Origin: Candidatus Thorarchaeota archaeon
GTDB taxonomy: Archaea; Asgardarchaeota; Thorarchaeia; Thorarchaeales; Thorarchaeaceae
Direction of reading: 5' to 3'
DNA: 12,930 nt
Assembly: GCA_048884965.1 (NCBI GenBank)
Contig: JBHLQH010000064.1
Span: 1 to 12,930, forward strand
A program made the translations under genes and the position numbers. The stretch's first letter is position 1; every line of letters begins with the position of its first letter. Positions 1-12,930 of the stretch are shown piece after piece. The notes beneath the pieces are model-generated. The model was not told where the DNA came from, made no database searches, and saw only the letters and a program-made list of their open reading frames with translations.

Positions 1-1
1 T

Positions 2-487
2 CCTGAGATTACTTGGGAGTACTTTGGTAGCTATACGGATGGGGACCCTGGGTATATCGTGGTGACAGCTTCAGATGCATCAGGTCTAGATATGGATCCA
101 TCAGGAACATACTACTTGACATCCGATCTAGGTGAGCAAACCTTTGATCTTACAGCAGTTGATGGAGATACTGATAGGCCTGGGGATAGTCTGAGCACTG
201 CAATCACAGTTTCTATCGAAATTATAGATGACGATACAATTGCTCCTGAAATAACTTGGGAATACTTTGGTGATGAAACTGATGGAAATCCTGGCTATAT
301 CGAGGTATTCGCTTCGGATACTTCTGGACTCTTTGAAGATCCCTCGGGAATCTACTATCTAACTCCAGATCTAGGCAACCACGTATTCACCTTTGTCGCT
401 GTCGATGCTGATGAGGATCGAGTCGGAGATCAGCTAACTACCACTGTGATCGTCACAATCGAGATAGTAGATGATGACACCATCGCA
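2..487 (+). repeat. Two 243-nt (81-aa) tandem intragenic repeats, followed by two more diverged units (488-832 and about 833-1125)
   Basis: PEITWEYFG starts at 2 and 245, and the next unit (PVVQIDYF) starts at 488, an exact 243-nt period. Shared motifs: DG(D/N)PGYI, ASDxSGLxxDPSGxYYLT, DxDxDR, IEIxDDDTIA. Confidence 0.9.
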
Positions 488-1792
488 CCAGTGGTTCAGA
501 TCGATTACTTCGACGGAGATGGCACCGATCAAAATCCCGGCTACTTTGCTTGGATCATCACAGACTCCGATGATGGAATTGGAGGAGATGGAGATACAGG
601 TTTCAGTAGCATTGAGATCGTTGTAACCTACTCATCTCTGGATGGTTTGAGTGATTTCACCATTACCTTACCAGACAGCGAATCTGGAGAATGGTACCTA
701 CCATCTGAGTTGGGAACATATTCCATCTCAGTCTATGCTCAAGACAACGATGATGATAGAACACTACTTGTGGACTCACTTACGACATCAGCTTCGTTGG
801 AACAGGAGATAGTGGATGATGATACGACTCCTCCTGTGCTGGCCGACTTGATGATTACCGAAACTGAATCTCATCTGATAGTCAGCTTCAATGCATCTGA
901 TGATTCAGGAATCTCAACTGTAGAGATACTCTTTGATGGGCTTTCCTTCGTGCCAGACGTTGTCATTATTTCTGGAGAATCCTATACATACGAGTACAGT
1001 AAGGTGATTCTCTTCGCTCTTGGTATAGGGACTCACCTCCTTGAGATCTATCTAACTGATGGAGATGACGACCGACCAAACGATGAATTGACCTCTGTCT
1101 ACTCAGAGACCATCGACATCCTTGTTGACAACTTGCTTGAATTCATAAAGTACGAGCTGCTGGTCTTGAAGAGTGAGGTCCATGATAATGTGGGTCATCC
1201 ATTCGGGATGATTATCGAGAAGAAGCTCGACAAAGCCATCTGGCGAATTGATTGGGCCATGCAGGAATATCTTGAAGGCAAGATATCATGTTCTTTGATG
1301 CTGGAGCGACTCTCGAAGGTCACCCTTGAGATTATCGAGATTGTTGCTGAGGTTGGAGATTGGTGTGATAAGATTGATAGCTCCTTTGCTGACTATCTAG
1401 TGATACGTCTTCATGAGATTCGAGACCACATCACTTTCGCAATGGCGTCATCAATTGGTACTCAAGTAGCAATCGATATTGCTGCAGTCGAGATACTGAT
1501 TGATCAATTTGCTGATGGACTCTACGATGAGATGTCCTTCTGGGCTGCATTGATAATTGATGTTCACCTTGGTCAAGCTACTAGAAAGTTGGATCAGGTC
1601 TTCATTCAATTGGCACGAGGTCATGAATGTGGAGCAGAGCATCTACTAGAAAGTGCAATTAGAGACCTATACGAAACTGAATGCTGGATTCGCTGCTTGG
1701 CACGATGTGATGTGATTCCGAATGACTTGGCTGATGGTATGATCCTTGCGATTCAGGGATTCATCACGTCACTTCAGGAAATCGTAATTTGA
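2..1792 (+). CDS. Large acidic repeat protein, 5'-truncated: cadherin-like/Ig-fold Ca2+-binding repeats plus a duplicated C-terminal helical domain
   Basis: The frame is open from base 2 (PEITWEYFGSYTDGDPGYIVV...), so the track start at 59 is an internal GTG. Repeats contain AxDxDxDR and (I/V)DDDTxxP motifs and are Asp/Thr/Ser-rich with a beta-strand pattern. A roughly 220-aa helical region follows, ending at TGA 1790-1792. Confidence 0.8.
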   Translation, partial: PEITWEYFGSYTDGDPGYIVVTASDASGLDMDPSGTYYLTSDLGEQTFDLTAVDGDTDRPGDSLSTAITVSIEIIDDDTIAPEITWEYFGDETDGNPGYIEVFASDTSGLFEDPSGIYYLTPDLGNHVFTFVAVDADEDRVGDQLTTTVIVTIEIVDDDTIAPVVQIDYFDGDGTDQNPGYFAWIITDSDDGIGGDGDTGFSSIEIVVTYSSLDGLSDFTITLPDSESGEWYLPSELGTYSISVYAQDNDDDRTLLVDSLTTSASLEQEIVDDDTTPPVLADLMITETESHLIVSFNASDDSGISTVEILFDGLSFVPDVVIISGESYTYEYSKVILFALGIGTHLLEIYLTDGDDDRPNDELTSVYSETIDILVDNLLEFIKYELLVLKSEVHDNVGHPFGMIIEKKLDKAIWRIDWAMQEYLEGKISCSLMLERLSKVTLEIIEIVAEVGDWCDKIDSSFADYLVIRLHEIRDHITFAMASSIGTQVAIDIAAVEILIDQFADGLYDEMSFWAALIIDVHLGQATRKLDQVFIQLARGHECGAEHLLESAIRDLYETECWIRCLARCDVIPNDLADGMILAIQGFITSLQEIVI

Positions 1793-1827
1793 GTAGGGTA
1801 TGAAACTATAGGAGGTATTGCGGTACT

Positions 1828-2208
1828 CTAGAAGACCGCAATAGCCTCAATCTCTACTCTTACATCCTTTGGAAGCCTTGCGACTTCAACAGCAGCTCTT
1901 GCAGGTGGCTTCTCTGTGAACCACTTGGCATATTCAGCATTCATCTCAGCGAAATCATTCATATCTTTCAGGAAAACGGTCACCTTGACTACTTTGCCCA
2001 AGGATGAGCCTGCAGCTTCGATGACACCTTTTACATTGGCTAGAGATTGCTTTGTTTGTTCAGTGATTGAACCTGATACCAATTCTCCTGTGGCAGGATC
2101 AATGGGAATCTGTCCTGAACAGAACACGAAGCCGTTTGCTTTGATTCCCTGTGAATAGGGACCTATAGCTTTAGGTGCATTATCTGTTGCGATAACTTCT
2201 CGAGTCAT
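1828..2208 (-). CDS. ridA: RidA family (YjgF/YER057c/UK114) reactive enamine/imine deaminase
   Basis: Signature motifs [34 protein letters not shown] (catalytic Arg) and VEIEAIA; 126 aa. Confidence 0.95.
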
Positions 2209-2263
2209 TTTGCATCGAGTCAGGTGAAGTATTGACTTCTGCTTTAATCTAGCGGTTGTAGTA

Positions 2264-3235
2264 CTAGCCCGGCGGAGGTGGTGGGACCGCGAAACCTTGG
2301 ACGATAGTCGTGCCAGTTTCCCCTCTTAGAGCACGTGTGATATTCTCAGGATTCGTGATGATTGCCTGCTTGCCTCCGCGCTTGATGAAATCAATGCAAG
2401 CCTCAATCTTTGGCAACATGCTACCTGCGGCAAAATGTCCTTGCTCCATGTACTGCTGAGCTTTGATGTGATCAATCTTCAGGAGGGCTTCTTGGTTTGG
2501 TTTTCCAAAGTTCAAGTAGACCTGTTCAACTGCAGTTGATATCAAGAGGATGTCTGCATTAAGACCATTGGCAAGTAGGCTAGAAGCTCTATCCTTGTCG
2601 ATAACAGCAGCGACACCTTCAAGGTCGCCATCCTTATTCTTAATCACTGGGATTCCTCCACCACCGACAGCATATACTATAGTTCCCAATCGATTTAGAG
2701 CTTTGATTGATTCAAGTTCAACAATATGTTTCGGAATTGGTGAAGCTACAACCCGTCTCCATCCTCGACCGGAGTCTTCTTTGATACTCCAATGCTCCTC
2801 TTTCTCTCGGCGCTTAGCTTCTTTCTCATCCATGAACGATCCTATTGGCTTGTTCGGATTCTGAAATGCTGGGTCCTCTTTGTCCACCAGAACCTGTGTG
2901 ACGATACTTGCTACTTCCTTCTCTATTCCTCTCTTGGAGAATTCGTTGTACATCGCTCGTTGAATCATGTAGCCGATTGCGCCTTGTGTGTCAGCGCCGC
3001 AATAGTCTAACGGGACTTCATGAAGCTCATGTGCTGCGAGCTCAGAACGTCTCAGAATGAATCCTACCTGTGGACCATTTCCTGAAGTGATGACGACATC
3101 CCAACCTTCTACAACCATGTCCGCAATATGCTTGCATGTTTCTGCTGTTGCAGCAAATTGATCTGGGACTGTCTTGTGGTCCTTGTCCTTTATGAGTGAG
3201 TTTCCTCCAATTGCAATAACTGCCTTCTTGGCCAT
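2264..3235 (-). CDS. arcC: Carbamate kinase
   Basis: Motifs [70 protein letters not shown] and GTTI. The ATG at 3235 (MAKKAV) has GAGGA upstream and matches the usual N-terminus; 3274 is an alternative start. Confidence 0.93.
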
Positions 3236-3486
3236 AGTATCAATCCTCGTCTTAGAGGTCCCCAACGGGGACATATCTCCTACATAAACCGAGTGGTTAA
3301 GACCTATTCGATTTAAAAGCTCATACTTGCAAATATATTGTGGTAGAAACTTGGATGATTAAGCGAGTATTTGGAATCTCTACCGTAGGACTCTGGATTC
3401 GACTAAGGTATCAGAGAGTTATAGTAATGATTGATGAGCCCTAAGGTCTATATCGAGCGATGATAGTTGTAGGTAAGTGACCTAGG

Positions 3487-4440
3487 ATGACAACTACAAG
3501 AGAGAGATACGAAGGATGTATGTTGGGACTCGCCATTGGAGATGCCATAGGTGCAGCTACTGAGTTTCTCACATTCGATGAGATTAGGGTGAGGTGGCCT
3601 CCAAATGGAGTTGAATCCTATAATCCCTTCAGAGGGCTCAGGCCTGGTTCATACACTGATGATACCGAACTGTCAATCGCTGTAGCTTTGGGTCTCCTCC
3701 ACGCAAAGGATCATGGAACCAGATTGATAATGGAGAGCATGACAAACGAGTTCATAACTTGGATGGCAAACACTAACAGCTCTCGATCACCAGGAAACAC
3801 CTGTATGATGGGTGTTCAGCACCTGAAGTCTGGTGTCGATTGGTCCGAGTCTGGAATGAACGATTCAAAAGGATGCGGCACTGCGATGAGAGCGGCTCCG
3901 ATTGGACTTGCATATCATCATGCACTCGATGCACTTACCAGCATTTCTTCCCGCATCTCAAAGATGACTCATGGTCATCCATGTGCAACAGCCGGATCCT
4001 TCGCTACCGCATTCCTTGTAGCACGTTCTCTAGATGGTTCCACAACAAGCAACCTACTGGATGAGCTAATCAGTCGTAGTTCATTCATCAGCGATGAGTT
4101 TTCCAATCATATGAAAAAAATACAAGATGCATTGAGTACTGGCAATTCAAAGAGCGCATTTGAGATTCTCGGACAGGGTTGGGTCGCAGAAGAGGCAGTC
4201 GCTGGTGCAGTATATGCCAATATCAAGCATCCTGATTCCTTCAGGGATTGTATTCTTGAGGCTGCAAATTCTGGTGGAGATACCGATTCAAAGGCGTGTA
4301 TTGCTGGAGCGATAGCTGGGACTCGCCTTGGGCGAGATGCAATACCGAATGGATGGATAGAAGGAATCGAGAATCGGGACCTACTCATTGACTTGGCGAA
4401 TCAACTACTTCGATTGCAGAAAGAGCTGGAGCAGATATGA
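3487..4440 (+). CDS. ADP-ribosylglycohydrolase (ARH/DraG family)
   Basis: Motifs GLAIGDAIG, YTDDTE, SKGCGTAMR, MTHGHP and GGDTDS, including the acidic Mg/Mn ligands; 317 aa. Confidence 0.92.
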   Translation: MTTTRERYEGCMLGLAIGDAIGAATEFLTFDEIRVRWPPNGVESYNPFRGLRPGSYTDDTELSIAVALGLLHAKDHGTRLIMESMTNEFITWMANTNSSRSPGNTCMMGVQHLKSGVDWSESGMNDSKGCGTAMRAAPIGLAYHHALDALTSISSRISKMTHGHPCATAGSFATAFLVARSLDGSTTSNLLDELISRSSFISDEFSNHMKKIQDALSTGNSKSAFEILGQGWVAEEAVAGAVYANIKHPDSFRDCILEAANSGGDTDSKACIAGAIAGTRLGRDAIPNGWIEGIENRDLLIDLANQLLRLQKELEQI

Positions 4441-4441
4441 T

Positions 4442-5719
4442 TCAGTAGGAGACAATCCCAACATCATTGTTAAGATTGGCTATATATGCCAGGTACTCCT
4501 TGTCAATATCGCTAGCGTTTTCTGTCGTAGGAGTAGAGCGTTTGAAGAACTCCTCAAATCGATCCACCTCTTGTTGCAGCATTTCCTTTTCGAATAGAAT
4601 ATGTGCTCCTTTGTGAACTTCCATCTGAAGGTCTTCGATATACTTGTGTGCATCACTCACTACATTGGGAGCCTTCTCAGATTGCCTTCGAAGCACTCGT
4701 TCTCTTCTCCACCAGAATGACTCTTCTGAGTATTTCTCGCCTGCAATATCCCATCCTTTGTATACATAGGGGTCTTTGAAAACGAAGGGCCAATGTACAC
4801 TGAAGCATGGATTTGAGGACCCAGTAAACCAATGGATCTCCTTTCCAAGTTCTGAGATCTGACTGCCTGTTGAGGAATCCCTTCTTGTGTGTGATGTGTG
4901 CTGACAAATTGGGGGATTCTCATATTCCCAAGGTTTCCAATCAACAGGATGACTTCGTAGTATTCTCGAGATGTCCTCGAATGTGATCCCTCCTTTCTTC
5001 TGCTCCAGGTACTCTGATGTGTTGGATTGTCTGATCGTACACGCAGTGATATAGTCCATCATCTCGTTGCCATATGCCTGTGAGAATGAGAACGAATTCC
5101 TGTCCTCAACCCATTCTTGTTGAATAGCGAACTCAACTAGGTCCGCTGATGAAAGATCCCACTCTGTACCTATCGTGTAGCCATTTGATATTGAACGAAC
5201 ATCCTCAATTTTCTCTGCAATCCATCTTCGCTGAGAGGTTTCAAGTACCCACCCCTCAATCTTATCTGCGATAATGAAGCTGTTGTGATAGGTAAGCATC
5301 CCTCCTAGTTCGCATGATCCACCTTGTCCATGCGTTTCTAGAAGCTGTGTGATCACATCCAGTGCATCTTTTGCAGACTTTCCCCGTTCTAATCCTAATC
5401 GCAACAGGTCCATACCCAATAGTCCTGTGTCAGGAACTTCTTCTTTCGAGAACACTGCTTCATTCCCAATAACAACTCCATGCTCGTTTGCTCCCATCTC
5501 TGCTCCCCATATCCAATGTGGACGTGAGATGAATATTGCATAGGTTTGCTTCACTTGTGGAATACTGATGTGAGTGCACTTGACCTCATTCTCATCATGA
5601 TCTTTTGCAGGATGATATTCAACTATCTGGGCTTCATTTGGAGGACGATCGCTATTCTTTCCAAAGAGTACATTTCCATCTTTAGTCGCTTTACCAAGAG
5701 CTACCAGAGTATCGCACAT
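4442..5719 (-). CDS. Peptidase C69 / secernin-like N-terminal nucleophile hydrolase
   Basis: True start is probably ATG 5719, giving MCDTLVA with Cys2 as the nucleophile. Motifs FGKNSDR, WGAEMGANEHGV, GNEAV, LLGMDLLRLGLERG, GQGG, YHNSFIIAD and RSISN. Confidence 0.9.
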   Translation of the reverse strand: MCDTLVALGKATKDGNVLFGKNSDRPPNEAQIVEYHPAKDHDENEVKCTHISIPQVKQTYAIFISRPHWIWGAEMGANEHGVVIGNEAVFSKEEVPDTGLLGMDLLRLGLERGKSAKDALDVITQLLETHGQGGSCELGGMLTYHNSFIIADKIEGWVLETSQRRWIAEKIEDVRSISNGYTIGTEWDLSSADLVEFAIQQEWVEDRNSFSFSQAYGNEMMDYITACTIRQSNTSEYLEQKKGGITFEDISRILRSHPVDWKPWEYENPPICQHTSHTRRDSSTGSQISELGKEIHWFTGSSNPCFSVHWPFVFKDPYVYKGWDIAGEKYSEESFWWRRERVLRRQSEKAPNVVSDAHKYIEDLQMEVHKGAHILFEKEMLQQEVDRFEEFFKRSTPTTENASDIDKEYLAYIANLNNDVGIVSY

Positions 5720-5786
5720 TCTAATCAGAAAATAATATGCAAAACTCCCTGAGTAATCTTGTGGTTTCAAGAAGGATAGCTGCGAA

Positions 5787-6521
5787 TCACTGTTTCATCT
5801 CGTTTAACCACTCTTCAAGGTAAGTGGACTCTGTCTCATCTGCTCCGCCAACAGTCCTTCCAGTCATCGCATCAACCAAGCTTTTGGCTCTTAGCAGGAT
5901 TGAGCGATCCTTCTTGATCAGCGTTTCAGCATACTCAAGTGCGGCTGGAAGTAATTCTGTTTGAGGAAGGACTCTATCTGCTAGTCCGATTCTCAAGCAT
6001 TCATCAGCAGAAACTGTTCTTCCTGACATTAGAATGTCCTTTGCTCGAGAAGGTCCTACCAGGTGGACCAGGTTGGACGCTGCACCTGCGCCTGGGAAAA
6101 CTCCCACATCGATTTCAGGAAGACGATAAGCGGCATTTTCAGAAAAGAATCTGAAATCACATGCACCTGAGACCATTGCACCGAATCCAATAGCATAGCC
6201 ATTGACTGCTGCGATAGTAATGCAATGCCTTGCCTGACGGATGATTCTGATGATTTTCTCTAGCCTCTTGAAGAAGTCATACTTTTCGTGCTTGTCAAGA
6301 CCAGTGATCATCTTGAGGTCAAATCCAGCACTGAAGGCCTTCTCTCCCTCTCCCGTGAAGACTATTGCTTGTATTTCTGAATCATTAATGAACTTTGAAA
6401 CCTTATCTGCAAACGAATCCAACATCTCAGCAGTCACACTGTTCAGCTTCTCAGGGCGTGAGAAGGTTATTGTGACGATTGAATCCTTTCTCTCTGATTT
6501 AATTTCTCCATTCACATTCAT
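5787..6521 (-). CDS. Enoyl-CoA hydratase/isomerase (crotonase) family protein
   Basis: Motifs SRPEKLNS, AFSAGFDL, IAAVNGYAIG, CDFR, LPEIDVGVFPGAG, LVGPSRAKDILMSG and GLADRV. Confidence 0.92.
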   Translation of the reverse strand: MNVNGEIKSERKDSIVTITFSRPEKLNSVTAEMLDSFADKVSKFINDSEIQAIVFTGEGEKAFSAGFDLKMITGLDKHEKYDFFKRLEKIIRIIRQARHCITIAAVNGYAIGFGAMVSGACDFRFFSENAAYRLPEIDVGVFPGAGAASNLVHLVGPSRAKDILMSGRTVSADECLRIGLADRVLPQTELLPAALEYAETLIKKDRSILLRAKSLVDAMTGRTVGGADETESTYLEEWLNEMKQ

Positions 6522-6647
6522 TCACCAATGATACCGCATTTCAGAGAACATGATATAGCCTTTTGGGGAGATGGAATTGAACAGTACTTGGTTAGTAACC
6601 TTCATCTGGATTCGAGTCGTATCTACTACTGTGGTGGGGTGACATTG

Positions 6648-7016
6648 ATGCTATCCATTCTTCTTCTATGGCCGAATGTGATTATCTATGGAGTCATATT
6701 TGTGATTCTATATCATACAGAATTCAGAAAGGAACGAAAGAAAGGAGTTTATGCACCCTCCTACATCTTCCTGCTTCTATGGCTCTGTGGAACACTGTTT
6801 TTTTTCGTTTCTGCCTACAATGCCTACATAGCTGTTCTTGCACCAGATCCTTGGGGGGTTTATATCTCCCCCTCCGATGAAATCATCTATTGGAACACTC
6901 TCTGGGGTCTAATTCCCGCAACGATTTTCTTGCTGATACTCTCTATATCATTTGCCATTGATAGCATCCTTTCAAAGAAGATTCCCACCGAGCAATCTCC
7001 CAAACCGGGATGGTAG
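6648..7016 (+). CDS. Hypothetical small membrane protein with about 3 TM helices (paralog 1)
   Basis: Three hydrophobic segments. ATG 6648 is preceded by GGGGTGA and aligns with the start of the downstream paralog, so it is preferred over track start 6528. Confidence 0.75.
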   Translation: MLSILLLWPNVIIYGVIFVILYHTEFRKERKKGVYAPSYIFLLLWLCGTLFFFVSAYNAYIAVLAPDPWGVYISPSDEIIYWNTLWGLIPATIFLLILSISFAIDSILSKKIPTEQSPKPGW

Positions 7017-7043
7017 TTGGGCTCATTTCTGGAGGTTCAAAGT

Positions 7044-7388
7044 ATGCTGATTCTATTCTGGCCTGGTGTCATTGTCTTGGGAACAGTTACTTTCTTTCTT
7101 CATTTTACATCTTTTAGAGAACAGCGAATGAGAGGAAGCTATGGTAACACGAATTTATTCGTGCTGCTATGGATGGTCGCTTTCCTTGGCTTCTTTGCAC
7201 TAGCCTACAAATCCTACTTTCCACTCCTCCATCTCGAGATTCATGATCTATGGATTTCACCTTCTGCATACGATGAGTTTTGGAACTTCTATTGGAGCGC
7301 ATTACTCTCCTCTATAATTTTCCTCACACTTGCGCTCCTAAGTTTCTACGAGAGAGTTATAATTCCAAGAAGGAAGTCTATTCAATGA
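7044..7388 (+). CDS. Hypothetical small membrane protein with about 3 TM helices (paralog 2)
   Basis: GGAGGT SD before ATG 7044. Colinear with the 6648-7016 product (WP, TxFRxxRxxGxY, LLW, AYxxY, ISPS, WNxxW). Confidence 0.78.
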   Translation: MLILFWPGVIVLGTVTFFLHFTSFREQRMRGSYGNTNLFVLLWMVAFLGFFALAYKSYFPLLHLEIHDLWISPSAYDEFWNFYWSALLSSIIFLTLALLSFYERVIIPRRKSIQ

Positions 7389-7839
7389 ATAATTGATCCA
7401 GAGGCTTCTCACCTTTGTAGATGTACTTGCATTCAGGATAGAGCGCACATCCATAAAAAATACCCTTCCCGTCCTTCTTCTTCTTCTTGATGAGAGGATG
7501 TCCTTGGGGATCGACATAGTCTGTTATCATGTCTATAAGTTCCTCAATCTTATCAGCAAGATTCTCATCCCAGTTCGTAGTTCGAAGAGTCTTGGGAGCG
7601 GTTTCCACGATCTTTCTATCATTATACATCAATACAGTCTTTATGGCATCACTCCCTTTTTCGCGTGATACTCCGGTGTTCTTGTCAATTGTGGAATATA
7701 TCCAGATGGACATCTTGTTGAGGAAGGAGATCTTATAGACTGCCTCGAAAACTCCGGGAGGTCTGATTAGTATTGGTTTGTACCTCTTCAATGCCTTCTC
7801 AAAATCATATTGAGTCATCTCTACATATCTATCGACCAA
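7378..7839 (-). CDS. Hypothetical protein with a C-terminal topoisomerase-type (zf-C4-like) zinc ribbon, degenerate
   Basis: The C-terminus DPQGHPLIKKKKKDGKGIFYGCALYPECKY fits the GxFxGCxxYPxC ribbon motif. TTG start with GGGAGA upstream. Confidence 0.75.
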   Translation of the reverse strand: MVDRYVEMTQYDFEKALKRYKPILIRPPGVFEAVYKISFLNKMSIWIYSTIDKNTGVSREKGSDAIKTVLMYNDRKIVETAPKTLRTTNWDENLADKIEELIDMITDYVDPQGHPLIKKKKKDGKGIFYGCALYPECKYIYKGEKPLDQLFIE

Positions 7840-7882
7840 TTGAATCTCCCAATGATTCTCAGGCAGTTACTAAAGATAAATC

Positions 7883-8467
7883 CTAGCTATCCTCTTTTTG
7901 TAGCAGGCTTTCTACCTTGCCTATGGAATCTTTGATGTATGAATTGTTGGGGTCGAGCTTCAGTGCGTAGAAGAAAGCATCATACGCCTCCTCATATCGC
8001 TTCAGTTTCACATAGATTCGTCCCAGTGATATCCAAGCTGTTTCTTCAGTGTCATCGATATCTAGAGACCTTCGTATCATCTCGATGGCCTCATCATCCT
8101 GATTTTTCTTCTCAAGAACGTTGCCAAGTCGATGCCAGTTACGAGCATTTTCGGGATTGAGCTTTATAGCTTTTCTGATGTAATCTTCTGCTTTGTCATA
8201 CTGCTTGAGGAGAATAAGGGACTCCCCAAGGTGTGCCCACGCTAAACCGTTTGCTGGGTCTAGTCTAACTGCACGGGCGAGATACTTCATTCCCTGTTCT
8301 GCTGATTTCCGAGATGAGTTAAGCATCACACCGAATGCAATGAGTGCCTCGAGGTTATCAGGATCCATTTTGAGAGCTCTTCGAAAGAGAGCACGAGCTC
8401 TATTCTGTTCTCCCTTCAATGCAGCACCCTTGGCTTCTAGTATGAGGTGCTCGATATCCTCGGACAT
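7883..8467 (-). CDS. Tetratricopeptide repeat (TPR) protein
   Basis: About five units of roughly 34 aa with TPR consensus: ALKMDPDN, AWAHLGE...AIKLNPEN, NWHRLGN, AWISLGR...ALKLDPNN. Confidence 0.9.
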   Translation of the reverse strand: MSEDIEHLILEAKGAALKGEQNRARALFRRALKMDPDNLEALIAFGVMLNSSRKSAEQGMKYLARAVRLDPANGLAWAHLGESLILLKQYDKAEDYIRKAIKLNPENARNWHRLGNVLEKKNQDDEAIEMIRRSLDIDDTEETAWISLGRIYVKLKRYEEAYDAFFYALKLDPNNSYIKDSIGKVESLLQKEDS

Positions 8468-8558
8468 TCCTAGTATCGATTGGATGTACTTTGTTTAACA
8501 CTTGTGGTAAGATGCATAAAGGGGACTAATTCAAATAGATGGAGTATGTGGGAGCCAT

Positions 8559-9884
8559 ATGCGTTTCTTTGAACCTGCAGAGAACCAATCTTGCTATTAT
8601 TGTAAGAAGATACATACAGTTGAGGATGGCTATCCAATTCGGAATAGCGTGTACTCGTATGAAAACTATGTCTATCGGTGTACATGGCATTCAAGATTTC
8701 AATGCTCGAAGTGCGGAAAGGAGTACCATTTCAGCTGGTTCTATTGGTGTCCTGAAACCAAGGAACTCGTCTGTGGGGGTTGTAGCAAACCCCGATTATA
8801 TCCTGTCAAGTTCTGGGATCGTACTTATGCATACGAATTCTATTGTGAAACCTGTGATACACATCACTATGACCTTCTTTACTCCGAGTACTGTGGTACT
8901 CATCCATGGCAAATTGGAATCTTCAAGTTGAAGAATACTATAGGCTCTTCCGATCCATGGCAACCAATGTGGTGCCCGGAAACGCAACGTTCTGGTGAAG
9001 CTCTTACCTTGGAGGAGTCATTGAGACTTGAGAATAGAGTCTTCGCTCTTCGAAAGGAGCTGAGTGTCTACGAGCCTGTTGCAGCGATTGTGCCAGAGAA
9101 TGATATGAACGAGTCTGAAACTGAAGAGGCCTGGGAGAGATTTAGTGAAGAATGGCTGACACGATTGGATTCCGATTCCCCAGATGAAGGTGATATGAAT
9201 CGAAGGTATGTTATTGACCCTGCATTGATGAAATTAATTGGAGATGTGAGTGGGCATAGGATTCTCGATGCCGGTTGCGGGAATGGTTACCTATCAAGGA
9301 AACTGGCTCGCTTGGGTGCAACAGTCACAGGCGTAGATTTTACTAGTCCATTCATCGATTATTGCAAGCGTAGAGAATCTGAGAACCCACTAGGTTGTAC
9401 ATTTATCCAAGCTTCATTGGATGACCTTTCGTTCTTTGACGAAAAGATGTTTGATCTTGTTGTTTCAAATATCGTCATGGTGGATGTCGTGAACTTCAAA
9501 CAAGCATTTCGAGAGATCTGTAGAGTCCTCACAGATGATGGAAGATTCATCTGGTCAAATACACATCCCGTATTTGGTAGGTCCGGATCTTTTGATGTAA
9601 GATTGCCCAGTGACACGGCTCGACCAGAAGAGAGATACCTGAAGCTTGTTGACCGATATTTCGATTCGGGGGGAATACTATTCGACTGGGATGGTCATAA
9701 CCTCTGGCAAATTGACCGAACATTGGAGGAATATAGCAAAGCATTGAAACAAGCAGGCTTAGTAATTTCGGAGATAATTGAACCAAGACCATCTAATGAG
9801 GCTATTCAAGAAAATCCTAGATACTTCGCTTTTGATGGAGATAGATGGACTCATTTTATTATCTTTGAGTGCATGAAGCGATAG
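8559..9884 (+). CDS. Class I SAM-dependent methyltransferase with an N-terminal Cys/His-rich multi-zinc domain
   Basis: SAM motif I RILDAGCGNG, plus VTGVDFT, FDLVVSN and RVLTDDGRFIWSNTHP. Residues 12-115 carry several CxxC/CxxH pairs. GGGAG SD before the ATG. Confidence 0.88.
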   Translation: MRFFEPAENQSCYYCKKIHTVEDGYPIRNSVYSYENYVYRCTWHSRFQCSKCGKEYHFSWFYWCPETKELVCGGCSKPRLYPVKFWDRTYAYEFYCETCDTHHYDLLYSEYCGTHPWQIGIFKLKNTIGSSDPWQPMWCPETQRSGEALTLEESLRLENRVFALRKELSVYEPVAAIVPENDMNESETEEAWERFSEEWLTRLDSDSPDEGDMNRRYVIDPALMKLIGDVSGHRILDAGCGNGYLSRKLARLGATVTGVDFTSPFIDYCKRRESENPLGCTFIQASLDDLSFFDEKMFDLVVSNIVMVDVVNFKQAFREICRVLTDDGRFIWSNTHPVFGRSGSFDVRLPSDTARPEERYLKLVDRYFDSGGILFDWDGHNLWQIDRTLEEYSKALKQAGLVISEIIEPRPSNEAIQENPRYFAFDGDRWTHFIIFECMKR

Positions 9885-9935
9885 TGTAGACATTGCTTCT
9901 GAATTACACATTCTGTTTAGCGTAGAACGAGGTCA

Positions 9936-9943
9936 TTATATTT
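9936..9943 (+). promoter_or_regulatory. Putative archaeal TATA box (TTATATTT) for the 9964 gene
   Basis: The AT box begins 28 nt upstream of ATG 9964, a spacing typical of leaderless archaeal transcripts. Confidence 0.35.
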
Positions 9944-9963
9944 GGGTTCATTCCGAATTCGAC

Positions 9964-10461
9964 ATGATAGATATGGGCATATCTCTGAGTGACAATCCAA
10001 ATCTTCGCAAGCTCGTACGAGAAATCAGGAGTGTTCGAAATCATCCTTTCAGGTTAAAACAGCTTCTTGCTGAATATGAAGCAAACTATGGGGAAGACGC
10101 CAATAGCGCGGTACTGCAGATAGTTGCAGAGGACACTAGAAGAATTTGGGCAGGTATTGCGTATGATAAGGGAAGTAACTCTCTTGATGATCTACTTGAC
10201 TGTCTATGGATACAATTTGAGGATACAGGAGGAGAATTCGCTCTTCATCACGAGGATGGAGCTATTCATGTTTGTGCAACTAAGTGCCCAATTGCAGATG
10301 TCTACAAAAGAATTGGAAAGGAATCCTTGGGAATGTTGTTTCATTGCAGCTCGGATCCTTTCATTGTGGAAGGCTTCAATGATTCGATAGAATTCTCATT
10401 GGCAAAAACCCTGATGGAAGGGGATGACTATTGCGATCATCGCTATTCTCTGAAGAACTAG
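9964..10461 (+). CDS. L-2-amino-thiazoline-4-carboxylic acid (ATC) hydrolase-like / V4R-fold protein
   Basis: The pattern TKCPIADVY...FHCSSD...EGFN...KTLMEGDDYCDHRY matches the three-Cys family signature. Confidence 0.8.
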   Translation: MIDMGISLSDNPNLRKLVREIRSVRNHPFRLKQLLAEYEANYGEDANSAVLQIVAEDTRRIWAGIAYDKGSNSLDDLLDCLWIQFEDTGGEFALHHEDGAIHVCATKCPIADVYKRIGKESLGMLFHCSSDPFIVEGFNDSIEFSLAKTLMEGDDYCDHRYSLKN

Positions 10462-10559
10462 CACATTCTCTCTTTAAACTAGGAAATGCAACAGGTTGAG
10501 ACATACAGACAATGAATCCTCATTGGGTTGTATGCAATATATTTCTCTGGCAAAAAGAG

Positions 10560-10805
10560 ATGAAAGATGATCAGTTTCTGAAGACTATAAAGGACATCAA
10601 GGAGAAAGTAGATTCCCTGATGGTAAGATTTCGGAATTTCAGTTATGCTTCCGAGGAATTCTGGGCTGTTCATGATGAGATCGTTCAACTTCTGTACAAA
10701 GGACTTGATCTTGCAAACGCGATTGAAGAGGTCGGATATGCTAGGGAATTCAGAGAAAAACTCAATATTCTGAAGGATAGTGTTCCATCCGGCTATTGGA
10801 AATAG
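10560..10805 (+). CDS. Small helical hypothetical protein (81 aa)
   Basis: Amphipathic helical pattern (MKDDQFLKTIKDIKEKVDSLM...). ATG 10560 is preferred over 10512 because the extension looks non-coding. A strong hairpin follows immediately. Confidence 0.6.
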   Translation: MKDDQFLKTIKDIKEKVDSLMVRFRNFSYASEEFWAVHDEIVQLLYKGLDLANAIEEVGYAREFREKLNILKDSVPSGYWK

Positions 10806-10806
10806 C

Positions 10807-10855
10807 ACGCAATTGGTCTGAATTAGACGAATTTTGACCAATTGTGTTTATGTTT
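10807..10855 (+). terminator. Hairpin followed by a T-rich tract directly after the 10805 stop
   Basis: CAATTGGTC (10810-10818) and GACCAATTG (10836-10844) are a perfect inverted repeat, extendable with G-U pairs and followed by TGTTTATGTTT. Confidence 0.5.
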
Positions 10856-10996
10856 AAAGAAGGCACAATCGTAAATTTGTATCATTGCACAAGGACAATG
10901 GGTTCATTTCATATTTCTTGAAGCAAATAGGGATGTCAGAATATTCGGATACTTTTCATAGCCAAATGTCTGACACCCTCTTTGAAGAGAACGGGA

Positions 10997-11113
10997 TTAC
11001 ACACCCGTCCATCCCATATGTAGTCTGTCCTCGATCAGTGTAATGTTACGCCTTGAATTCCTGGAATGGTTATTCCTGCGTTTCCTTCCACTAGAGTTGT
11101 TATGTCTGCCCAC
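10997..11113 (-). CDS. Putative 38-aa Arg/Asn-rich small protein (not in the ORF track)
   Basis: GTG start 5 nt after a GGAGGTG SD (11119-11125 on the - strand). Translation: MGRHNNSSGRKRRNNHSRNSRRNITLIEDRLHMGWTGV*. Confidence 0.5.
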   Translation of the reverse strand: MGRHNNSSGRKRRNNHSRNSRRNITLIEDRLHMGWTGV

Positions 11114-11531
11114 TTACCCACCTCCCTGCTCGCCGGTCGAATGCCTGACGTACAATGTCACTGATGTGAATAGCAATTACTCGGGAAGAAGGAGTGGGCT
11201 GATGGTTATTTTGACAAGATCGTAATCTGTCAATTTTGTTCCGAGAATCGTTTTTTGACTTAATCATTTAGTGGCAATCGCCTAGCCAAAAATTATGAAC
11301 ATCTTTACTCATAAATATTTGTTAGTATCAATTGATAATCTAGATGCGCGCTAGAGCACGATTCATGAAAGCGCCTGAAAATTCTGCAGGCGATGTGAAG
11401 AATTTGGATACATAATATGCGTAATTATCATCTTGCTTCTTCCAAGAAGACATTCTCTAGAATTCCGCCTGTAGGAAGATTTGAATAAGTCCGTTCATAA
11501 TGAAGAAAACTCTACGGAGCGCGTGATATTC

Positions 11532-11927
11532 ATGGCACAATTAGTTTTCACATATGGAATGTACTTCATTCTTGCAGCCCTGATTACCTACACAATCGCA
11601 GTATGGGGCGAACAACTAACACATGATCTAAAGCCCATATTCGTTGTGATGTTCTGTATCGGCGTCTGCTGTGACACGACCGGGACAATGATAATGGCAC
11701 TGAATCTGGAGTCATTAGGAACTCCCCTCAGTCCGCTGGATGCCCTATTTCATTCTGTCACTGGTTTGGCAGCCATCATTCTAATGCTTATCCATGCCAT
11801 CTGGGCGATACGGGTGTTATTGCAGAAGGATGAGGTTTCAGCCGCACGATTCCACAGGTTCTCAAAGTATGTGTGGGTATTCTGGTTGATTCCATTCTTC
11901 TCTCCGATGATTGCCCAGCAATTTTAG
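11532..11927 (+). CDS. hsmA: HsmA / TIGR03987-family 4-TM putative heme-binding membrane protein
   Basis: Motifs ALITYTIAVWGE, GVCCDTTGT, FHSVTGLAAIILMLIHAIWA and FHRFSKYVWVFWLIPF match the family as I recall it. Start at ATG 11532 (MAQLV) rather than TTG 11481. The symbol is family-level only. Confidence 0.8.
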   Translation: MAQLVFTYGMYFILAALITYTIAVWGEQLTHDLKPIFVVMFCIGVCCDTTGTMIMALNLESLGTPLSPLDALFHSVTGLAAIILMLIHAIWAIRVLLQKDEVSAARFHRFSKYVWVFWLIPFFSPMIAQQF

Positions 11928-12007
11928 AATGCAAAAAGTCGTCAAAGATATATATCGTTCGCGAGGATTTTTACACGAGAAAGAGTGGAAAAGGAATTGA
12001 TAACCAA

Positions 12008-12930
12008 GTGGGTTTCGATAGATCAAATAGATTCTACGGTGCTTTAGCCTTCTTTATTTTCATCATGGCTCCTGCAGGCTTCTTCTTTGGCCAGACCCCT
12101 GCGAATGTACGATATGACAATGTGACTCCCTTCCGTGATTATGGGGATTCATCAACGTATCGGATTGAGAACTATGAAGTTGATGTATATCCTCAATCAG
12201 ATGGTACATTGAATGTCCATCTATTGATTGAGTACTATGTGCTAAGTGGAACGAAAACAAGAGGATTCAAGCAATTCTTGTTGCCAACCCCTAATAGCTA
12301 TATCTACGGAGCAGAGGCATATGATGGGCAGTCATTAGATGTTCATGTCACTCCTGATGGTATGTACATCGAGGTTGGCTGGACATTTTATTCGCCCTTC
12401 ACTGGGCCAAAGACAGTTAATGTGGAATTTAATGTGGGGAACGGTGTTTCTCAGGAGTTATTTGCTGACGTAATTCGTCTTCCAAATGCAGGACGATGGG
12501 GTGTGAGTGTTAGTAGATCCGTGTACAGAGTGCATCTTCCTGATGGTGCAGGTCTACTAAGCAATGTTTCACAAAGCGTATTCGAAGACCATCTCATAAC
12601 ATGGGACCCTCCAGAGGTCTATGCGACTCCCTTTACAGGGATTGCATCGAGATTTGCTGGTGTTCTCTGCATCGCATTGACGATTATCTGCATAACTGGC
12701 ATTATTCAGACCGAACGATCCAAGGTCACATTATCTCCGGGTAACCATCCCCGACCGACTTCCTTTCCAGTTGGATTCTTGGCTGCAATGAAATTCGGAG
12801 TATCAAAGGCAATCTGGGCCTCATTATTTGCCATGGAGATATATGGGAAAAGGGAATCCAAAGCAAGTATTCTTCCATCCAGATTCATTAGAGGTCATGA
12901 GTATGTCATCGCACAGTCAACAGGGGCCGC
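12008..12930 (+). CDS. DUF2207-like membrane protein, 3'-truncated (missing from the ORF track because there is no stop in the window)
   Basis: Open frame from GTG 12008 to the window end. Signal-like MGFDRSNRFYGALAFFIFIMAPAGFFFG, then YRIENYEVDVYPQSDGTLNVHLLIEY, YRVHLP, a TM helix FAGVLCIALTIICITGII, and PRPTSFPVGFL. Confidence 0.75.
   Translation, partial: MGFDRSNRFYGALAFFIFIMAPAGFFFGQTPANVRYDNVTPFRDYGDSSTYRIENYEVDVYPQSDGTLNVHLLIEYYVLSGTKTRGFKQFLLPTPNSYIYGAEAYDGQSLDVHVTPDGMYIEVGWTFYSPFTGPKTVNVEFNVGNGVSQELFADVIRLPNAGRWGVSVSRSVYRVHLPDGAGLLSNVSQSVFEDHLITWDPPEVYATPFTGIASRFAGVLCIALTIICITGIIQTERSKVTLSPGNHPRPTSFPVGFLAAMKFGVSKAIWASLFAMEIYGKRESKASILPSRFIRGHEYVIAQSTGA

Follow-up and report, generated by a model that had tools for sequence, protein, structure and literature searches.

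Several zinc-binding modules and two solved structures offer points of comparison for a methyltransferase gene in a 12,930-nucleotide stretch of a Candidatus Thorarchaeota genome (GenBank assembly GCA_048884965.1, contig JBHLQH010000064.1, positions 1 to 12,930; hereafter the window). LIM domains (PF00412) follow the consensus C-x2-C-x16-23-H-x2-C-x2-C-x2-C-x16-21-C-x2-(C/H/D), and FYVE domains carry the signature motifs WxxD, R(R/K)HHCR, and RVC. Among methyltransferase-associated modules, the rRNA methyltransferase RlmA(I) has a small, basic N-terminal zinc domain with a single four-ligand site before a related class I core, and Trm112 is a small zinc-knuckle protein, likewise with a single site, that works as a separate subunit attached to class I methyltransferases. 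The nearest solved structures to the window protein, by both sequence and fold, are 3G5L (Listeria monocytogenes) and 3BKW (Mesorhizobium loti), both uncharacterised structural-genomics enzymes. The window gene encodes a 441-residue protein in which a conserved and unnamed Cys/His-rich domain, probably with three zinc sites, is joined to an ordinary S-adenosylmethionine (SAM)-dependent methyltransferase.

The catalytic part follows 3G5L and 3BKW over residues 221-422 (phmmer E 1.5e-15 and 1.9e-15, respectively), with Foldseek template modelling (TM) scores of 0.82-0.85 when normalised to the target and an E-value of 5e-16 to 3g5l_A. The conserved residues that the fused family has in common with 3G5L, 3BKW, and unfused relatives include W192, D212, motif I, R247, D299, H336-P337, Y367, R387, Y392, and E408-P409; the two structures and the unfused homologues of about 234 residues nevertheless lack the N-terminal Cys/His domain, a loop at residues 348-357, and an insert at residues 379-385. 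No function can be transferred from 3G5L or 3BKW because their own substrates are unknown. RlmA(I) resembles the window protein in placing a zinc-binding extension before a Methyltransf_11-like core, although the neutral-to-acidic extension here runs to about 110 residues with about three sites; no sequence match to RlmA(I) turned up, in searches that included no dedicated comparison. The Trm112p profile gave weak matches in seven of 23 family members (best E 0.051; in the window protein at residues 57-84), all falling well short of the gathering score, and Trm112 is absent from the fold-search lists.

A conserved domain fused exclusively to a methyltransferase

A preliminary description of the window, made from sequence, had proposed a Cys/His-rich extension running from C12 to H115 and fused to a methyltransferase, and every residue that it listed is present where it was placed in the translation of positions 8559-9884. 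The first 120 residues hold 11 Cys, 6 His, and 28 aromatic residues (W5, Y16, F7; 23% Trp/Tyr/Phe), compared with 5 Cys and 4 His in the 251 residues of the methyltransferase part (191-441). Thirteen Cys/His positions do not vary at all in an alignment of 23 rows whose mean column identity is 52% and in which identity falls to 27%, and conservation was also counted over 120 sequences aligned to the domain profile. In the larger set, C12, C15, C41, H44, C49, C52, and C72 are 99-100% conserved, C75 is kept in 99 of 104 sequences, C64 in 100 of 108, H57 in 100 of 111, and H115 in 83 of 85. Given 13 invariant positions in the smaller alignment and eight ligands conserved at about 99-100% in the larger, the pattern is not a product of chance. 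H102 and C112, like H19, show no conservation across the 120 aligned sequences; position 103 is His in only 57 of 93, and C96 and C99 are jointly exchanged for Ser-Ser or Ser-Thr in about 17. Toward the end of the domain, L106, E110, H115, P116, and Q118 are each kept in at least 80% of the representatives at 50% identity. An internal duplication was sought by hhalign comparison of sub-alignments, which returned only trivial overlap.

The fusion itself is genuine: the same architecture occurs on more than 100 independent contigs, which rules out an assembly artefact, and the 15 nearest unfused methyltransferases of about 234 residues lack the extension. Its hosts are Thor-, Hermod-, Heimdall-, Hod-, and Promethearchaeota, together with a few Bathyarchaeia and metagenome-assembled genomes (MAGs) of Methanobacteriota and Thermodesulfobacteriota. 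The domain was present in 77 of 301 sampled Asgard genomes, unevenly by family, and in five of 201 Bathyarchaeia genomes. A word-indexed search with residues 1-200 returned 28 proteins, of which 24 are 438-467 residues long and the shorter ones partial, and all those with precomputed Pfam domains carry a methyltransferase. When one genome per species was scanned, the protein turned up at 32 loci, the Bathyarchaeia copies being divergent.

The preliminary description had envisaged a targeting module and suggested looking for it alone and in other fusions; neither turned up. A domain profile of 162 positions (A2), searched against 1.84 billion cluster representatives, yielded only 94 matches; every complete match tested combines the zinc domain with Methyltransf_11, and the domain was found neither alone nor on any other enzyme. 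Ten longer representatives compared with Pfam likewise showed the domain followed by Methyltransf_11, except for three without a Pfam match, two of which (P0055 and P0056) are frameshifted calls. Short matches were considered as free-standing domains and rejected as contig-end fragments or frameshifted high-GC calls, and the shorter proteins with the methyltransferase part are only fragments and the unfused relatives of about 234 residues.

A few members depart from the standard form. A 676-residue protein from a Thermodesulfobacteriota MAG (P0034) has the zinc domain followed by two tandem Methyltransf_11 domains, and one Bathyarchaeia copy (L032:5962-6900) is a pseudogene with several in-frame stops through the zinc domain and beyond. 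Two Asgard copies of the domain (G046:C19:68030-68440 and G039:C20:10157-10504) contain a single in-frame stop each, TAG in one and TGA in the other. An apparent 719-residue methyltransferase/DNA-ligase-like fusion (L026:6010-8166) is not real, the open reading frame (ORF) running across a stretch of N that appears as X in the translation.

The domain is real and undescribed, and it matches no known fold, while the catalytic class to which it is joined is already known. Residues 1-165 have no Pfam, NCBIfam, or PDB family match, in keeping with the preliminary description of the module as novel. The best hit in a PDB profile search was the eL43 ribbon (E 0.19), and sub-threshold matches to generic zinc ribbons fall at residues 46-77 (ADK_lid in 10 of the 23 members, best E 0.0086). 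Public annotations of the family offer only "class I SAM-dependent methyltransferase" or generic UbiE/UbiG-type names, and a literature search found no paper on the N-terminal domain. An AlphaFold2 (AF2) model of the domain alone has a mean predicted local distance difference test score (pLDDT) of 84.2, rising to about 90 over residues 11-120, and a predicted TM score (pTM) of 0.81. Of the LIM, RING, and B-box folds that the preliminary description had put forward for structural comparison, none gave a significant match with this model: Foldseek against PDB gave nothing at E <= 0.001 (best E 0.41). BFVD likewise gave nothing at that threshold (best E 0.03), and all ESM Atlas scores lay below 0.9. 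VIA-align against 48,161 representative chains found a single chain at Z >= 2 (Z 2.6; root-mean-square deviation (rmsd) 5.3; 62 residues aligned), and a second fold comparison reached at best Z 2.4, with dynactin p62. The finding is a conserved domain of about 110 residues and roughly three metals that hardly occurs outside Asgard archaea and a small number of further sediment archaea and bacteria. Being compact, apparently soluble, and predicted with confidence, it would lend itself readily to structure determination and to a Pfam entry.

Arrangement of the putative metal sites

The AF2 model of the domain begins with a helix (residues 13-21) that starts from the first knuckle, followed by a hairpin before C41 and by three short strands (55-57, 61-64, and 69-72) between the C49 and C72 knuckles. 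On the C-terminal side, a long hairpin (79-96) ends in the C96 knuckle and is followed by a strand bearing H103 and a helix at residues 106-112. The assignment of ligands to sites draws on conservation and on a ligand-state tree built from the methyltransferase part alone. C12, C15, C41, H44, C49, C52, C72, and C75 are retained throughout this tree, whereas the C96/C99 pair undergoes three state changes, with losses in two clades; these clades have also lost H103, and every loss of C64 lies inside them. This co-loss, with the other eight ligands kept, suggests a third site formed by C64, C96, and C99 together with H103, or with C67 in a deep grade of the family referred to as type B, and the four residues behave as a dispensable unit. 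The total of about three metal sites proposed in the preliminary description is supported by conservation and co-loss alike.

Position 67, a Thr in the window protein and a Cys in type B, shows the alternation of the fourth ligand; in type B the ligand spacing reads C-x2-C-x11-C-x2-C-x4-C-x2-C-x20-C-x2-C. C67 occurs without H103 in 17 sequences and H103 without C67 in at least 46, compared with two sequences that have both and four that have neither though C96/C99 are kept; on the tree, C67 changes once. The resulting interleaving of the second and third sites suggests a cross-braced two-zinc module of FYVE/RING type placed after a finger with three Cys and one His (C3H), rather than a LIM domain. 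Likeness to FYVE, RING, and B-box modules lies in the eight-Cys spacing of type B, in a co-loss pattern that fits ligand pairs 1+3 and 2+4, and in a helix after the last pair; by contrast, an extra C3H finger precedes the module here, and in the window protein one of the eight Cys gives way to a His located 36 residues farther downstream. Weak local Foldseek rows repeatedly feature FYVE, B-box, and RING entries (30-35 columns; rmsd 1.7-3.8; all E > 1), FYVE structures appearing only at E 1.4-3.0, and the window protein has neither the FYVE signature motifs nor a Pfam FYVE match. Were the cross-brace correct, the domain would be a prokaryotic example of a finger type known mostly from eukaryotes.

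The preliminary description had instead emphasised a resemblance to the back-to-back tandem fingers of eukaryotic LIM domains. That resemblance has some basis, in that the first eight ligands divide into two consecutive fingers of four ligands each, one His among them, with loosely LIM-like spacing and similar overall length, and the putative sites 1 and 2 use the same eight residues. In addition, one ESM Atlas neighbour cluster carries LIM on 26% of its members (cosine 0.87, below the lead threshold). The details nevertheless diverge from the consensus: in C-x2-C-x25-C-x2-H-x4-C-x2-C-x19-C-x2-C the first loop is longer, the His comes fourth among the ligands instead of third, and four residues instead of two make up the junction. 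The second "finger", moreover, seems to be interleaved with the third site, and the predicted helix begins right at the first knuckle, unlike the arrangement in LIM. The LIM profile of Pfam found no match in the window domain at E <= 10, a threshold at which HMMER filters may hide very weak ones, and the 25 families with matches in most of the 23 members do not include LIM. LMO2 (2xjy_A), the only LIM structure among the Foldseek matches listed, stands at rank 15 with E 1.6, TM 0.16, and rmsd 14.3, which amounts to noise, and it falls below Z 2 in the second fold comparison, although neither a weak nor a missing match is proof of a different fold.

The catalytic core and the role of the domain

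By profile, motif, and Rossmann-like fold, the C-terminal part is a class I SAM-dependent methyltransferase with predicted activity. Methyltransf_11 (PF08241) matches residues 231-334, with 78.9 bits against a cutoff of 21.2 (E 4.5e-22) for residues 236-331, Methyltransf_25 also lies well above its gathering score, and motif I, L-D-A-G-C-G-N-G at residues 236-243, is invariant across the family, as is D260, the acidic residue farther on that is expected for the ribose. None of the NCBIfam equivalogs searched (BioC, UbiG, UbiE, CpaM, ArsM, and others) reached its cutoff, the best being BioC with 59 bits against 185. A comparison of the catalytic parts of 33 fused members and the 15 nearest unfused methyltransferases singled out two further features of the fused family. 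A loop at residues 348-357, with the consensus (R/K)-x-P-x-D-(S/T)-x-R-x-E, is nearly invariant in the 33 fused members and is a gap in 14 of the 15 unfused ones, and an insert of about seven residues (379-385) occurs only in the fused family. Despite its invariant sequence, the loop region is modelled with low confidence (AF2 pLDDT < 50 at residues 351-360). The full-length model has a pLDDT of 83.2 and a pTM of 0.82, which for a two-domain protein suggests a defined domain arrangement.

The explanation that we favour, with a probability of roughly 0.55, is that the domain is a metal-stabilised cap integral to the enzyme; acting with the loop particular to this family, it would shape a substrate site suited to a protein or a small molecule. 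Under this explanation the N-terminal 120 or so residues would constitute an undescribed metal-stabilised domain, probably zinc-binding, held in a predicted fixed position on the catalytic domain and inherited together with the 348-357 loop. Domain and loop would contribute to the surface that binds the substrate and would determine the specificity of an ordinary methyl-transfer core, which keeps its SAM-binding motifs and the conserved residues in common with unfused relatives. An obligate fusion that looks rigid points to a built-in component of the enzyme more than to a portable reader, and with a domain that is neutral to acidic, a protein or a small molecule is a likelier substrate than a nucleic acid. 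The integral cap is likewise favoured by the combination of that charge with the lack of conserved neighbours and with an occurrence in about a quarter of the sampled Asgard genomes. If the domain does define the substrate, the enzyme would catalyse a methylation reaction that is new to the prokaryotes most closely related to eukaryotes. In a more ambitious version, which is decidedly doubtful, a new zinc-stabilised fold (a C3H finger plus a cross-braced pair) would recognise the substrate of a protein or metabolite methyltransferase enriched in Asgard archaea, and would be related to the FYVE/RING-type cross-braced fingers that later diversified in eukaryotes.

Several observations weigh against the integral cap and the site assignment on which its description draws. 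The assignment comes from conservation and two to three independent loss events, too few for a significant sign test, and the exchange between C67 and H103 happens just once on the tree. None of the three proposed sites accommodates H57 or H115, which are about 90% and about 98% conserved, respectively. The five full-length AF2 models span pLDDT 69 to 83, such that docking of the domain is not certain, and a high pTM is no proof that the domain touches the active site. Across families, moreover, no conserved neighbour gene of either type A or type B points to a substrate.

Of the competing explanations, the best placed is a purely structural or oligomerisation module, serving for example dimerisation or thermostability and playing no part in substrate choice, although we regard it as unlikely. 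The conserved non-ligand residues of the domain are mostly aromatic, as in the core of a small metal-stabilised domain, and site 3 has been lost at least twice while the gene was kept. Such a module accounts poorly for an exclusive fusion gained alongside a conserved charged loop (D352, R355, and E357), and for the closing E-x-x-G-x-H-P-W-Q, which is invariant even in members without site 3. There is, next, a slim chance that the Cys clusters bind iron in the manner of rubredoxin or form a thiol/redox switch that regulates the methyltransferase in anaerobes. C-x2-C-G knuckles such as C49-S-K-C-G also occur in rubredoxins, the hosts are sediment anaerobes as judged by MAG titles, and in one family type B lies near genes for a small thioredoxin-like protein, a permease, and an ArsR-type regulator, identified by eye from translations; nevertheless, that neighbourhood is limited to the one family, and the mixed Cys/His sites and weak zinc-ribbon matches fit structural zinc better.

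An equally thin prospect, ranked just after the redox proposal, is a nucleic-acid-targeting zinc module like that of RlmA(I), in an enzyme that would modify rRNA or tRNA. Apart from the precedent of RlmA(I), with its zinc domain and related core, the RIG-I C-terminal domain appears among the top non-significant Foldseek rows and ribosomal zinc ribbons among the weak profile matches; against this, the net charge of the domain ranges from -10 to +3 and its isoelectric point from 4.8 to 8.3 across the 23 members, and a core RNA-modification enzyme would not be expected in so small a fraction of Asgard genomes. Finally, it is very improbable that the domain is a tandem finger of LIM type, whether by homology or by analogy with eukaryotic LIM, and recruits the methyltransferase to protein or RNA targets as a portable reader; against this stand the spacing, structural comparisons, and interleaved third site described above, and a domain found only on this methyltransferase.

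Gene layout, paralogue, and neighbourhood

The coordinates of the gene and its parts are collected in the table below. Positions 8592 and 8903 are the first base of the C12 codon and the last base of the H115 codon, respectively. Overlapping short ORFs in other frames or on the opposite strand are shadows of the 441-residue gene. Within the linker, AF2 assigns residues 141-150 a pLDDT of up to 92.

Table 1. Features of the zinc-domain methyltransferase gene, in window coordinates
Feature	Position	Strand	Basis
Whole gene, 441-residue zinc-domain methyltransferase	8559..9884	+	ORF list and translation; homologues share the start Met and first residues
Cys/His-rich N-terminal domain, residues 8-120	8580..8918	+	AF2 pLDDT about 90 over residues 11-120; no Pfam or NCBIfam match
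Putative site 1: C12, C15, C41, H44 (C3H; knuckle, hairpin, short helical turn)	8592..8690	+	Conservation; putative pairing
Putative site 2: C49, C52, C72, C75 (zinc-ribbon-like)	8703..8783	+	Conservation and weak generic zinc-ribbon matches, residues 46-77
Putative site 3: C64, C96, C99, H103, interleaved with site 2 (cross-brace)	8748..8867	+	Co-loss pattern
Domain-closing motif L-D-x-x-E-(Y/F)-x-G-x-H-P-W-Q, including H115	8871..8912	+	Conservation
Linker, residues 121-190, with two short helices; W138, P140, G146, L155 conserved	8919..9128	+	Alignments; AF2
Class I SAM-methyltransferase Rossmann core, motif I at residues 236-243	9129..9563	+	Methyltransf_11 profile; Foldseek
C-terminal beta-rich methyltransferase subdomain	9564..9881	+	phmmer alignment with 3g5l and 3bkw to residues 414-422; AF2 strands
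Family-specific 10-residue loop, residues 348-357	9600..9629	+	Alignment of fused and unfused members

The same genome also encodes a deep type B paralogue of identical architecture on contig 4 (L036:565-1860, minus strand; 431 residues); its N-terminal domain is 27-30% identical to that of the window protein, and the full-length proteins are 28% identical. This type B gene has GNAT acetyltransferase genes on both sides, followed by a gene for an Acyl_transf_3 membrane protein. In one Asgard family (L038:1923-5849; also L039, L040, L044, and L053), type B adjoins genes for a 198-residue methyltransferase and a divergent Ras-like GTPase, and the same loci hold the 80-residue thioredoxin-like protein, the 463-residue permease, and the ArsR-type regulator mentioned above. 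This synteny is limited to that family, and the Ras-like ORF alone also clusters in a locus of another family (L048).

Upstream of the window gene, and divergent from it, lie genes for a 153-residue protein (7378-7839, minus strand) and a 194-residue tetratricopeptide repeat (TPR) protein (7883-8467, minus strand). The former ends in a Top1-type C4 zinc ribbon scoring 31 bits, just below the cutoff of 32, and the upstream position of the TPR gene is kept in only five close relatives. Farther upstream, two adjacent plus-strand ORFs without a Pfam match (6528-7016 and 7017-7388) cluster together and with one ORF of another locus (L001), forming a tandem paralogous pair.

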